A stretch of DNA of 44,978 bases from a virus (taxonomy: Duplodnaviria > Heunggongvirae > Uroviricota > Caudoviricetes). Where the stretch lies: positions 1 through 44,978 of the IMG/VR virus record IMGVR_UViG_2703718817_000009; one strand, given 5' to 3'. Shown here piece by piece: positions 1 to 6,000 of the stretch; position 1 is the stretch's first letter; each line of letters opens with the position of its first letter. The position numbers were made by a program.

Positions 1-3000
1 TTATTCCTGTGCCCAGCCAACCCTGTATGCCAGGATCTCATCCGCACTGCTCAGCGATTCCAGGTCCTTCTTCATGGTGCGCTGGCGAATGTGGATTTCC
101 ATCCCTTTAGTGAACATCGCCTGCTCTGCCGCTTCACTCAGCGCAATAAGCTCTTCTGCTGTCACCGGCACATCATTGTTTTCCGCATCCGTCCAGAAAA
201 ACGCCTCCGGCAGTTTCCCCGCTTTCGCTGCCGCCACCGATGGCTCAAGACGCGTCTGCGTTGACTTCCCGTAGTCCCATTTCCGGCCATTGTGCTCAAA
301 CGTGTAGTTCGCCGCCTCCATCGCATTACGCCACGCGTTTATTTCATCGCCCTTCATCCCGCGCGCTTTCTCCGCGGTCAGCAGATCCGTGATTTTCTCC
401 CCGTCAAAGCCCCACCGCCCCGAGATATCAGCTTTGCGGTTTTCTTCCGTATCCGCCACCTCCGCAATACTCTGATTCGCTGGCCACAGCGCCTGTACGT
501 CCCTGCTGATATCAGTGATAACCCCTGCACTGTTATAAACCACTTTCAGCGTATCCGGCGAAAACAAGGGCAGACACTCATACCAGTCCTGACCATCCTC
601 TGATTTCAGGTACATCGCCCCCGGAACATCCGGATTTTCCGGCGTATACCAGATGAAGTTTTTAATATTTACCATCATTGCCCCGCTTATCGTTGCCCCG
701 CATCTCTCCAGATCGGCATATTCTCCGGCCCCACACACCTCTCCATTCCTGCCGGGGCTGCACTGGCAGAAAAGACCTTATACACGGCACTCGCCACAAC
801 AACACAGTCTTCCGGCCAGCTTCCGGCAGCCTCATAAACCGAACGAAGCGAGGCCGGATAAAACGCATTATTTGATGGCGAAAAAAAATACTGTTCCATT
901 CTCCCTCCTCAGTAGCCAATGGCCTCCCAGTAAAACAGCCCGTATGTGTCCTTACTGACCGTCAGTATTACCGACTTCAGCAACGGTTCTGAAAGGGCAT
1001 ACCCCGTGAAATTTCCCGGTGAACCTACCGGTGATACAATGACATTCAGCGCCGCTGACGGAAAAGCTATCGGAAAATAGATGGTATGTGTGTCTCCTTC
1101 ACTGGTTGGCCGGACAACTTGTTTCTGCCCCCATTGCCGTATTCTTCCTGTTGCCTCATCCCGCTCCCATCCGTTCACATCCAGTTTCGCTGTTGAGGGG
1201 CGTCTGATGGAAGTGTAGTTAAACCGCCACTCATAGCTCTTTATACTGCCGCTGACCACGCAGGTGCAGTCCGTGCCATAAAACATATCCCAGGGCCGGT
1301 CATCACCTGCGCTGATCCGGACTATCGCATTCTCCCATGACCCCATCACTTCAATGGCGCATCCTCTCAGGGTGATTTTTTTCTTACCCAAATCAGTATC
1401 CACATCCGTGATCACACGGTTACTGTTGAGTAACCGCGTCGTGGTCATTACCCAGTAAGGGCCCTCAAAAGCACCCTGTGATTTCAGCCAGTTGATGAAC
1501 TCTTCTGTCGTCCACTCCCCTTCTCCTGTTTTGAGATCACGCCCGTAAGCTCTTGCCACCCCAAGCTTACGAATAAACGCCTCCTTGTCGGCAATATCAT
1601 CCAGGCTGGCAGACTTCCCTGCCGGACCCGCAGGCCCCTGCGCTCCTCTCTCGCCTTTATCGCCCTTTGGCCCCGTCGCCCCCTGCGGCCCCACGGGGCC
1701 CGTTGCACCTCGCTCACCTTGCGGCCCCCGCTCACCGGCAGGACCTGCCGGGCCGGGGTCACCTTTACCCCCTTTTTCCCCTTGTGGTCCTCTGGGGCCG
1801 GTAGCGCCCTGTGGACCAGCCGGACCCTGAGGCCCCGGCTCCCCTCTGGGGCCAGTGTCACCTTTTGGTCCCGGAGGTCCTCCGGGATCTCCCGGCTCTC
1901 CTTTTTCGCCTCTGGCTCCGGTTTCACCTCGCGGGCCCGCAGGACCAGCAGGCCCCTGAATACCCGCCTCTCCTTGCGGTCCCACGGGTCCGGTTTCACC
2001 CCGTGGCCCCTGTACCCCCTGTACCCCCTGTGGGCCTGCCTCACCACGCTCACCCTTTGGCCCACGCTCGCCGGTATCGCCTTTTGGCCCGGGAATACCC
2101 TGTGGCCCCGTGTCTCCCTTATCCCCCTTCGGTCCCCGCGCATTCTCTGCCCGTTTCTTCGCTTCCTCTGCACTCGCCGCTGACGCTTCCGCACGTTTCA
2201 GGATTTCCGCGGCCACCGCTTCCAGCTCTGCAAGGGCTTTCGGGTAATACTGTGCGTCCTCCAGGTCCATCAGAAATTTATTCAGCGTTCCCGGTGCAGA
2301 CTCCGCCTTCACCAGAATGTCACCCACATATGACGGCGCGTACCCTTCCGTGTTCAGCGTCACCCGGTACAGACCCGGCTCAACATCCATACTGTAACTG
2401 CCGGTTTCCCCCGGCTGACCATACGCCACCGTGGTGACAATCACCGTCTCCGTTGTGCGGCGCGCTTTCAGCTCTATCGTGCATCCCGGTACCGGCTTAC
2501 CGGCCCCGTCCTTCAGCACACCCGATATTCTGACTGCCATGGATTTCCTCCATAAAAAAACCGCAGGACCGGTTTCCCGGCCTGCGGTAAAATTTGTGAT
2601 TTATTGATGTTAAAAAGGTGCCATCCGGCTGATCACCCTCAGCAACCGGTCGGCGGGGAAGGTACACTCCCCCGCCACGGTTTCTTACCGCTTACACTGT
2701 AAGAACGCCGCAATCTCCGCGCCCGCTATCCGGAACCGGAACTCGCACAGTGAACTGTGGGTGATCCAGATAATGAGCACTACCGTGATACAAATCACGG
2801 TGGTTTTTAACGGTTTTTGCGACATAACGCTTGCTCCTTTTACGGAGAGGCGCTAACCTTCTTCTTGCTGAAGGAAGAACGTCAGGCCTCGGGTTAAACA
2901 TGAATGTTTTGTCCGGGGCCTTTTCACATCCGGCCTTCAGGTGTTCCCTCCGGCCATCAGCCAAAGGCACCCGCGCATACTGTACGGTTTTTGTCTCCTT

Positions 3001-6000
3001 CCGGCAATCCCGGGGCGCGATGTTCAGCGGATACTGATCCCCGCGCTGTTTTTCTTCACCACTATCGCCTGAAGGTTACTGATTCGTGAACTGCCCCAAC
3101 TGTCATTCTGACGCCGTGAGCTCACGGTAAAACTCAGGGTGATATGACCACCGCCAGCTGGCATATCGATGATCCCGCTGAAAATTCCCGGCTCTGCCAC
3201 TGACCTGCCTGAATAAATCCGGCGTCCGTTCTGATCAACATGCAGGAAGCACTCTGTCCAGATGTCATTACTGGTACGGGATTCCTGTTTTGACCCGACA
3301 TAGATTATCGGCGGGATTATAATCTGCCGGTCAAAGCTGTGATCGTCATACACCGTCAGCGTTCGTGTACCGTTCGCAAGGTAACTACCATCCACCGGAA
3401 AAGCCACCCCTGCACATTTCACAAGATCACCAATAATGTTCTCCGCTTTCAGCGTGCCATTTATCGTACAGTTCTCCGCTATCACGACATTATTGAGCGT
3501 GCCCGAGTTCGCACTGATATGTCCGCTGATGTCCGCATTGCGGGCCGTCAGCCTACCCTCCGGCGTCAGGGAGAACGTCGGGGGATTGCCGGACGAGGTG
3601 ATGCTCACTGCAAACAACCGCTTCAGGAACACATCGTTCATGAACAGCTGATTCCCCTGCGCCACAAACAGCGGCGTGGTGTTGCCGTTCTCCGGGTTAA
3701 TCATCGCGATACGGTCCGCCTGCAGCAGAATATTGCTCAGGGGCTGGCCATCAGCATCCTCAATCCCCGCACCTATACCGGCAACATACGGAATGCCGTT
3801 TTTCGTTTTCTGCACTTTCAGCATGTACAGCGCAGCCAGGTCGTTATTTGTGTCTGTCTGCACCCGCTGTATCTGCTGTATGGTGGCACTCTGGTCTTCC
3901 AGGGTTTTACTGACCGTCTGCGTGATTTCATTGCGGGTTTCGGTGATGGTGGTCTTCATCTCCGCCATCTCATCATCAAGCTGGCTGTTATCAATCAGCT
4001 CCCACATCCCCTGTGCCAGATGTGTCTTCCCGATTTCTCCTCTGAAAAAGTCCAGATACCCTTCTGCATCATTGCTGGCCCGGCCACTGGCTTCCACAAA
4101 CGCAGATTTCCCCACCAGGTTGACGCTGCGCACATAAAACCAGAAATCCTTCCCGGGCTTAATGTGCGGGCCGGAGACGCTCCACTGGCTGCCGGTACCC
4201 AGATAACGGGCAGAGGTTTCCACCTGTGCCGTGTCCGTGATGCGTTTTTCTGAGAACCAGAATTCAGACTGTACCGTCGGGTCATACACCGCAGGATGCG
4301 GGACCACCGTTATCTGAAAATAGCCCGGCGTCAGTTCAATGCTGGCCGGTGCCGCCGGTGCATTAATCCGGAATGTGGTGGTGGCCGGTTCGCCCTGCTG
4401 ACCGTAGCTGTTTATCGCCCTGACCGTCAGGGTGTATTCCCCGAGCGGCAGGCCACTGAAACGGTGCTCCGTGTCCGCCGTGATGGCGCTGGTCACCAGG
4501 CGGCTGTTCTCACCACTGCCACTGGTCAGGCGCAGACTGAAGCGCACGCCCTTCACCACCCGCGGCGTGTCCCATTTCGCCAGCGCCAGATACTGGCCGT
4601 CTGAGGCACTCACCTCCACCGTGAGGTGCTGCACCGCTGGCGGGATGACGCTGTTCAGTGAGCCGGAGAGCGGCTCAAAGCGGGCCCCGTTATCCACAAT
4701 GGCTTCTTTTTCCGGCACATGCTGCACCGCCGTGATGGCAAAGGTGCCGTCCGTGTTTTCCCGGATGGAAACACAGCGGAACAGGCGACGACGCAGTGAC
4801 GGCAGGGAGAGTCCCCACACACCGTATGTCGCCACGCCATCAGGCAGAATGCTGACCTGTATCCGGTCCGGGGCGGGGTGTGCAGTGATGTCCACGCGCA
4901 CCGGCTTACCGCTGCCGTTAATCAGGTTCACCGTCGATGTACCTGTCTCAGGCAGTGTCACCTCACGGTCCAGCGTCAGTGTGCGGCTGGCGGCATCGAT
5001 GGACAGGATGCGTCCGCCGGTCAGGGTCCCGGCATAGTCGTTATCACAGATTTCAATGATGTCACCGGGCGTGTGCCGCAGCCCCTGTGACCCGAGCGTG
5101 AAATCCACCGTCTGCGTTTCCAGCAGTTCTGTCTTTATCACCCACAGTCCGGCACGGTGGGCCTGACCGCGGCTGGTACAGCCGAACGCATCCACCTTCA
5201 GCAGATTGCGCCCGTAGCGCAGGATGGCGTCCGGGTCTTCCACCAGTTCCGTGGAAGTCTGCCAGCCGTTCTGCGGGTCAGTGTAATTCACCTCCACCGC
5301 CGTGTGCCGGTCCTTCAGGGCACTGAAGCTGTAGCGGAACCCCACGCCGTTATCATCCACCACCACATCGCTGTTGGTGTACGGCCACACCACATCCGAC
5401 GGACGGTCCTGAACGAACGTCAGCGTCTGGCCGTTCCATACCGGCATACAGCGCATCGCCGAGCAGAAATCCCCCAGGACATCCCACACCTTACGCTGCT
5501 GTGACAGGTACGCATTAAAGGTCATCCGCGGCTCTGTGCCCCCGAAACCATCCGGGACCGTCTGGTCGCAGTACTGCCCGATGGCATACAGCGCCCACTT
5601 GTCCACATCCGCCGCCCCCAGGCGTTTTCCCATGCCGTAGCGCGGGTGGGTCAGCATGTCCCACAGGCACCAGGCCGGGTTATTGCTGTATGCCGGTTTC
5701 AGGCTGCCGTCCCAGATACCGCTGTAGGTGCGTTTTTCCGGGTCATAGTTTGACGGCACCTGAATGATGCGGCCTCGGATATGGTAGTTCACCACCATCT
5801 GCTGGCCACCGAACTGCTCCGCATCCACCTGCAGCCCCACAATGGCCGTGTTCGGGTAGCACTGTTTCACATCGATGATTTCGGTGTATGACGACCACAG
5901 CGTTCTGTTCTGCAGCTGGTCCGTGGTACTGTCCGCCGTCACCCTGACCATCCGGATGTTAAAGGGGCGCTCAGGGAGATTATTCAGAATCACCGACGTC

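Follow-up and report, generated by a model that had tools for sequence, protein, structure and literature searches.

This study concerns a hok-type toxin locus in the tail gene region of a Shiga toxin 2 (Stx2) prophage. The prophage sequence, referred to as the window, is the complete 44,978 nucleotide (nt) stretch of IMG/VR record IMGVR_UViG_2703718817_000009. Region 24000-31000 of the window, with stx2A and stx2B in it, gives a 97.5% match to Stx2a-converting phages. Between the J stop codon (3024-3026) and the side tail fiber gene stf, whose start is at 2540, is a spacer that holds a minus-strand open reading frame (ORF) at 2685..2825, the hok coding sequence (CDS). It encodes 46 amino acids (aa) followed by a stop codon, and the product, MSQKPLKTTVICITVVLIIWITHSSLCEFRFRIAGAEIAAFLQCKR, is RefSeq WP_000078853.1.

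The 46-aa product has a hydrophobic core, TTVICITVVLIIWIT, followed by S-L-C-E (residues 25-28), E37 and E-x-AAF. The features that mark Hok proteins in the catalogue of Escalera-Maurer et al. (bioRxiv 10.1101/2025.08.07.668861), a single helix, L-C-E and a second acidic residue (L30, C31, E32 and E41 in the catalogue logo), are all present. The Pfam model HOK_GEF (PF01848), which has a gathering score of 22 bits, matched residues 10-44 with 43.5 bits (E=2.4e-11). PHROG 251, described as 'MokW-like host killing' in the moron category, matched with 76 bits (E=3.4e-21). The NCBIfam models for the HokA equivalog and the Hok subfamily (NF007290 and NF007279) gave 38.2 and 37 bits, below their cut-offs of 89 and 73 bits. 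Since the peptide matches Pfam and scores under both NCBIfam cut-offs, it is, by its sequence, a member of the wide Hok/Gef family and no orthologue of HokA or of the K-12 Hok proteins. Within that family it falls in the separate cluster 79. A Shine-Dalgarno sequence, AAGGAG, was read from the sequence at 2834..2839 (-), 8 nt 5' of the hok ATG. A first-pass annotation made from the DNA alone had pointed to a Hok-family ORF of 46 codons with a strong AAGGAG Shine-Dalgarno and had proposed a Hok/Gef profile search. That search was positive, and the Shine-Dalgarno stands as described, at 2839-2834 on the minus strand.

The limits of the cassette around hok were drawn from an alignment of 41 non-redundant cassettes of the same subfamily, termed tail-type here. 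Homology in this alignment runs from a -35/-10 pair to GGCACC(C), whatever the flanking genes. In the window the putative hok promoter has a -35 of TTGCCG at 3002..3007 (-), read from the sequence and beginning 17 nt after the J stop codon, and a -10 of TACAGT at 2979..2984 (-). Despite differing flanking genes, a conserved TAnnnT -10 lies exactly 6 nt ahead of GGGTGCC in 62/62 relatives, and TTGCC[GC] is found 17 nt upstream of this -10 in 48/62 related cassettes. This promoter and the Sok promoter described below were proposed from conservation and from homology with plasmid R1 and hokW, not from a consensus scan.

The predicted mRNA begins with a tac element, GGGUGCCUUUGGCUGAU, at 2956..2972 (-), position 2972 being where the match to the Rfam sok model starts. 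The leader, 2814..2972 (-), was recognized by Rfam RF01794 (sok / hok leader) with 50.3 bits (E=3.8e-10) in a permissive local search of 801 nt. This indicates a leader that is homologous to the classical hok leader but divergent from it in sequence. The partner of tac is the fbi element AUCAGCC-GGAU-GGCACCU at 2616..2633 (-), which is also where homology with diverged cassettes ends. Downstream of fbi an intrinsic terminator at 2554..2588 (-) was identified by terminator scan and folding, with a stem at 2561-2588 and a run of seven U at 2560-2554. It ends 14 nt ahead of the stf start codon. Most other cassettes have a terminator of different sequence at the same relative position.

In the minimum-energy fold of the RNA from 2972 to fbi (-168 kcal/mol, z=-7.7) the 5' GGGUGCCUUUGGCUGAU is paired with the 3' AUCAGCC-GGAU-GGCACCU. 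With the terminator included the z score of the same fold is -8.9. These fold scores and the Pfam and PHROG matches lie well outside what chance would give. RNAalifold predicted 72 pairs from 29 sequences. In this alignment 96.8% of cells are paired, as opposed to 31-46% when partners are slid, and 106 cells are doubly changed as opposed to 42 in shuffles, with 0/500 shuffles reaching 106; the counts were taken on the alignment that gave the structure, which favors it over the slid controls. Helix 1 of tac/fbi is invariant, and helix 2, its extension, shows compensatory changes at all 4 pairs. Compensatory changes also occur in 5/11 pairs of the helix joining the Sok-target region to the 3' untranslated region (UTR). 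The hok AUG is paired with a downstream box that lies within hok itself (columns 166-174 with 281-289), and the hok Shine-Dalgarno pairs with an upstream CUCC in full-length and truncated folds alike. The predicted hok mRNA, about 360-415 nt, thus folds into a closed form with a tac/fbi lock.

A GC-rich hairpin directly after the hok stop codon, 2652..2676 (-), is helix 13 of the alignment. Compensatory changes are found in 5/9 of its pairs and 99.6% of its cells are paired. By analogy with plasmid R1 (PMC9841398) this hairpin would be a processing stop, and its end the predicted 3' end of the processed mRNA. Cutting the RNA after the hairpin in silico causes local refolding of the 5' end and yields a target hairpin whose loop is CUUCAGCAA. 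The modeled refolding resembles the R1 scheme, in which the full-length mRNA is inert and the processed mRNA is active (PMC9841398). The hairpin terminator 3' of hok that had been noted from the DNA alone is present, and the search for fbi/tac elements by RNA folding that had been suggested with it was successful, with compensatory changes in relatives to support them.

The opposite strand carries a second predicted promoter, at 2831..2859 (+). It consists of a -35, TTGCTC (2831-2836), a 17-nt spacer and a -10, TAACCT (2854-2859). This -35 and the hok Shine-Dalgarno on the opposite strand overlap. TAACCT is found in 65/66 relatives, and the remaining one has TATCCT, which we take to be the sok -10 of plasmid R1. 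A TTGnnn 17-18 nt ahead of the -10 is present in 63/66 relatives. We also considered, and rejected, a further Sok promoter within the first codons of hok, from which Sok would overlap the ribosome site; no conserved -10 is found there.

The RNA expected from the conserved promoter is the predicted Sok, an antisense transcript of about 59 nt at 2866..2924 (+). Its proposed parts are an 18-nt single-stranded 5' tail, a terminator hairpin at 2884-2921 and UUUU, with both ends placed by prediction. Folding of 2866-2930 (+) gave -22 kcal/mol and a centroid of the tail-plus-hairpin form. The stem shows some covariation between alleles (GGCC/GGCC, AGCC/GGCU and GGUC/GACC). RNAalifold on the Sok strand produced a weak consensus, two allele groups being one base out of register. 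The predicted Sok region corresponds to the stretch probed as sokW in prophage Sp5. A plus-strand Sok-like RNA, which the first-pass annotation had suggested looking for, thus has a candidate with a conserved promoter and a tail-plus-hairpin fold, at the level of prediction.

In plasmid R1 three things are mandatory, namely a Shine-Dalgarno for mok, a start codon for mok, and translation that continues to the hok Shine-Dalgarno (PMC9841398), and a review treats mok as obligatory. The window was described from the DNA alone as having a longer, mok-like frame around hok. The frame itself is present, with 92 codons at 2692..2970 (-) that enclose hok in the register that mok has in R1, and GAGG is conserved at the position of the R1 mok Shine-Dalgarno. 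Both points fit a classical three-gene hok/mok/sok locus, in which translation of mok opens the hok ribosome site and Sok blocks mok. The mok-like label did not survive comparison with relatives. Of 63 unique subfamily sequences, 43 have no leader ORF with an ATG, GTG or TTG start that extends to the hok ribosome site. In the remaining 20/63 the leader starts are scattered over 15 positions, mostly without a Shine-Dalgarno. The enclosing frame is closed at -28 or -43 without a start codon in most relatives. Even alleles with 95-100% identical Hok have it shut; in L002 (95% identical DNA) and L011 (identical Hok) this happens at -43, that is, 43 nt before the hok ATG, and no start is present. 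The frame is open in the window because the hypervariable stretch of this allele (see below) happens to have no stop codons, so that the 92 codons are a property of the allele and not a conserved mok.

The GAGG can also be explained as a piece of the Sok terminator stem, and downstream of it there is no start codon at a usable distance. The sole in-frame ATG (2901-2899) is in a hairpin loop and has no Shine-Dalgarno. Near-cognate starts after GAGG (CUG, ACG and AUU) were also examined; each either lies in the wrong frame or is stopped at the conserved UAG in AGGUUAGC. Loci of the hokW type, to which the second hok locus of the window belongs, served as a control with the same script. A Shine-Dalgarno plus an ATG at -57 (52/56) or -56 (4/56) was found in every one of 56 unique loci, and this leader ATG is kept in 56/56 although it is inside a hypervariable stretch. 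The classical mok reading is largely refuted by this comparison, and we consider a three-gene locus very improbable. The subfamily of tail-type cassettes appears, from the sequences compared, to be mok-less. We found no paper that describes it as such.

Alleles of the cassette differ most in the stretch where Sok would meet its target. A comparison of 27 unique alleles whose Hok is at least 93% identical puts the peak of variation at 2856-2885. In the allele comparison this hypervariable stretch (2856..2885) covers the predicted Sok 5' tail and target loop, and the Sok -10 and the terminator stem on either side of it are invariant. The same pattern, a hypervariable Sok-tail stretch between an invariant Sok -10 and terminator stem, was seen in hokW-type loci (L090-L169). 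In L042 (IMGVR_UViG_2757320580_000004, 3008-4138) three tail-type cassettes stand in tandem about 500 bp apart, and each has a different predicted Sok-target stretch. The hypervariability and the L042 tandems are compatible with selection for Sok/target pairs that do not cross-react, and the hypervariability suggests that antisense specificity diversifies. A Sok/target module of about 25 nt appears to diversify, and this could let up to nine non-cross-reacting copies share one genome.

A second, classical hok locus elsewhere in the window had also been noted, and it proved to be one. It lies at 34138-34462 (-), is of the hokW type, and scores 117 bits with Rfam sok and 82.9 bits with Pfam HOK_GEF. 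Its leader ORF (ATG at -57) is in frame with hok, so that the listed ORF is a 70-aa, N-terminally extended Hok. This leader, unlike R1 mok, is no overlapping out-of-frame ORF. The published hokW-sokW locus of Sp5 was considered as a homologue of the J-stf cassette and rejected, since the published primers (MKQQKAM...; CTTGAGGCTATCTGCCTCGGGCATG) and the 51-aa HokW match 34138-34462 instead.

The J-stf locus is about 78% identical over 2617-2993 to a cassette directly downstream of lom in 933W and VT2-Sakai (Sp5). The lom-adjacent cassette also occurs in some 190 other Stx phage records. The spacer between lom and L0129 that holds this tail-type cassette is unannotated in the original records (L170 2508-2938 for 933W; L171 1508-1938 for VT2-Sakai/Sp5). 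Two different hok loci are thus present in Stx phages of either tail type, and Sp5 has a second Hok besides HokW. In Sp5, mitomycin C causes the loss of sokW and the appearance of HokW, and hokW-sokW raises phage release about 2-fold (PMC8621323). With two hok loci in Stx prophages such as the window, Sp5 and 933W, the published hokW-sokW deletion did not remove the other Hok toxin, a point that matters for the interpretation of the deletion's partial phenotype.

Cassettes of the subfamily occupy diverse genomic positions. At least 32 loci have the allele of the window between J and stf, and at least 35 have the 933W-type allele between lom and L0129. Other alleles are at the ends of P2-like prophages, beside ogr and gpD, or beside host genes. 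In L006 (about 3550-4540; Salmonella enterica), L043 and L047, cassettes at P2-like ends adjoin ORFs that were read from their translations as Ogr-like zinc-finger or gpD/FI-like. Because the same cassette is found in such varied positions, it behaves as a mobile, self-contained moron rather than a part of the tail operon. The moron slot of the tail region that had been assigned to the locus fits with its closest diverged copy, directly downstream of lom in 933W/Sp5-type Stx phages. In all likelihood, the J-stf spacer is a self-contained type I toxin-antitoxin cassette of the hok/Sok type, a moron in a lambdoid Stx2 prophage with a toxin of Hok cluster 79. Of the neighboring genes, stf (909-2540 (-)) encodes a protein with a phage_tail_N domain, a long region of collagen Gly-X-Y repeats and a Gp53-like C-terminal domain. 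Elsewhere in the window (27052-27266, 28675-28923 and 35166-35348) Rfam identified STnc100, three tRNAs, C4 antisense RNA and isrK.

The cassette is oriented like J and stf, and the stretch from the J stop codon to the hok leader contains no terminator. Q-modified late transcription would consequently run head-on into the Sok promoter. This arrangement, together with the 2-fold effect of hokW-sokW on phage release from Sp5 after mitomycin C (PMC8621323), could be taken to mean that the locus is a lysis accessory of the late operon, with Hok made mainly from Q-antiterminated read-through from J to stf, aiding the holin, and with the antisense RNA silencing it in the lysogen. We regard this as extremely improbable as the primary role. 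The same cassette, with its own promoter and terminator, occurs outside late operons, at P2-like prophage ends and beside host genes, and in a read-through RNA the tac/fbi lock can still form, out of reach of 3' trimming. A role in lysis is nevertheless compatible with a self-contained hok/Sok cassette, being one of the pay-offs listed for it below.

The toxin gene itself is already known. At least 20 chromosomes of Shiga toxin-producing Escherichia coli (STEC) carry the 483-bp spacer with 100% identity, and in them the Prokaryotic Genome Annotation Pipeline (PGAP) lists WP_000078853.1 as 'Hok/Gef family protein' between gpJ and a 'prophage tail fiber N-terminal domain' protein. The copy in phage 1720a-02 is 95% identical and is labeled 'hypothetical'. 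The catalogue of Escalera-Maurer et al. holds 32,532 Hok loci in 61 clusters and reports that hok is enriched in prophages; its supplementary table gives entry 79_1563, plasmid LRP163, as a representative of the high-abundance cluster 79 (bioRxiv 10.1101/2025.08.07.668861). The hok CDS of the window equals 79_1563 nucleotide for nucleotide, and the peptides are likewise identical. According to the text of the preprint, 42/45 cloned Hok homologues were toxic, and 79_1563 is not among the three that it names as non-toxic (bioRxiv 10.1101/2025.08.07.668861). This text implies that the Hok of the window is toxic on overexpression. The toxicity test that had been suggested for the window peptide has thus, as far as that text goes, been published for an identical CDS. 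The J-stf Hok locus is accordingly annotated in RefSeq, catalogued and reported toxic. The preprint states that mok, Sok and mRNA structure are outside its analysis (bioRxiv 10.1101/2025.08.07.668861). A paper search that combined the RefSeq accession with lom, moron and Stx returned irrelevant papers only, and a preprint on the small RNA Pas names Sok merely as a flanking Rfam match.

A more sensitive DNA search found the subfamily in 1750/5426 complete E. coli genomes (about a third), with up to nine copies per genome. It is also found in Salmonella, E. albertii and Citrobacter, and in IMG/VR it is present in 303 stretches. Tail-type hok cassettes are held as well by L004, L005 and L007, records titled Planococcaceae, Vagococcus and Xanthomonas pisi. 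As Hok is reported from four gammaproteobacterial families only (bioRxiv 10.1101/2025.08.07.668861), these are likely contaminating enterobacterial contigs.

The chromosomal hok copies of E. coli K-12 are mostly inactive according to the discussion in the preprint (bioRxiv 10.1101/2025.08.07.668861), and the J-stf cassette could be a decaying relic of the same sort, passively carried and no longer expressed or regulated. Its missing mok and its promoters, which are weak by consensus, would suit such a relic. The conservation of the cassette would not. The ORF is intact and its peptide toxic, as read from the preprint text. Both promoters, tac/fbi and three further helices are kept by compensatory change among alleles that are only about 60-78% identical. 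Variation is focused on the Sok-target stretch instead of being evenly spread. A relic would also be hard to reconcile with a cassette that is 100% identical in the STEC chromosomes and with the presence of the subfamily in a third of E. coli genomes. We judge decay to be quite unlikely.

How the self-contained hok/Sok cassette would work can be outlined from plasmid R1 and hokW-sokW. The full-length hok mRNA would be inert. Slow 3' trimming to the post-stop hairpin would remove fbi, whereupon the 5' end would refold and expose the target loop. Unstable Sok would bind this loop and the duplex would be destroyed. Were the supply of Sok to stop, the stored mRNA would mature, Hok would be made and the inner membrane would be depolarized. 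The supply could end through loss of the prophage, through shut-off of host transcription by an infecting phage, or through head-on late transcription from J after induction. In the modeled closed form the Sok target is paired with the 3' UTR.

The step from Sok to hok translation needs a different account if mok is missing. The Sok binding site of the model is separated from the hok Shine-Dalgarno, which lies downstream, by at least about 25 nt. Our best guesses for the link are decay by RNase III or a blocked ribosome standby site. We tentatively propose, as a possibility that falls a little short of an even chance, that the tail-type prophage Hok clusters 79 and 72 form a natural mok-less hok/Sok lineage in which control by Sok needs no leader peptide, whether by RNase III decay, a structural switch or a standby-site block, and with a diversifying Sok/target module.

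Several results weigh against these proposals. The transcripts, the RNA ends and the Sok RNA of the locus are all inferred. A consensus promoter scan of 2400-3200 called neither the hok nor the Sok promoter, the hok -35 scoring 8/12 where the threshold is 9/12. At the Rfam gathering threshold (59 bits) no match was obtained in the spacer; the leader lies below it, so standard Rfam annotation misses it. The NCBIfam scores and the use of a single alignment for both structure and covariation, given above, belong with these. In the preprint the toxicity assay is overexpression of the bare CDS only, and the result for construct 79_1563 is taken from its text. The lack of mok means that the R1 mechanism is not transferable as it stands. 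Accessibility of the hok Shine-Dalgarno and AUG, computed by partition function, shows no consistent switch between the full-length, truncated and Sok-bound forms, so that accessibility modeling supplies no mechanism for mok-less control.

The benefit of the cassette to the prophage can be divided only roughly. By analogy with hokW-sokW a contribution to lysis is plausible, and prophage addiction and abortive infection are as plausible, R1 hok/sok being cited in PMC8621323 for abortive infection against T4. In our rough split, addiction or abortive infection is the foremost possibility, though short of probable; help with lysis at induction seems less likely, and a purely selfish element less likely again.

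The J-stf cassette is real and intact-looking and of the hok/Sok type, and it is ordinary apart from one trait, the missing conserved mok. It carries little weight as a discovery. The residual interest is in regulation without mok and in the two hok loci of Stx phages. If the mok-less lineage is genuine, the textbook dependence of hok translation on mok would hold for only part of the family. A common mok-less subfamily would also be a natural test case for type I toxin control by an antisense RNA whose binding site is far from that of the ribosome.

Among known systems, the cassette resembles hok/mok/sok (parB) of plasmid R1 (PMC9841398). Both have a Hok/Gef peptide, a tac/fbi lock and a post-stop hairpin, an anti-Shine-Dalgarno that precedes the hok ribosome site, a downstream box with which the AUG pairs, and a Sok, predicted here, with a 5' tail, a terminator hairpin and a -35 that overlaps the hok Shine-Dalgarno. 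They differ in that translation of mok is mandatory in R1 and the window cassette has no conserved mok. Hok is 46 aa here and 52 aa in R1, the cassette is borne by a prophage and not a plasmid, and its leader is below the Rfam gathering score. The hokW-sokW locus of Sp5 (Sakai prophage 5; Takada et al. 2021, PMC8621323) is, like the J-stf cassette, a type I toxin-antitoxin locus carried by an Stx prophage. HokW is 51 aa long and its locus has kept a mok-type leader ORF, in contrast to the 46-aa Hok with no conserved mok. The type I system tisB/istR-1 (PMC4147584), which has no leader peptide, offers a possible functional analogy only: its antisense RNA has a binding site far upstream of the structured ribosome site of the toxin, and a leader ORF plays no part. 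It has no sequence relationship to the window cassette, and any standby mechanism here would be hypothetical. With cluster 79, its entry 79_1563 and WP_000078853.1 the cassette shares peptide, CDS and the position between gpJ and the tail fiber gene, and there is no difference at the protein level. The RNA anatomy of the cassette and its absence of mok are what the present analysis adds to that record.

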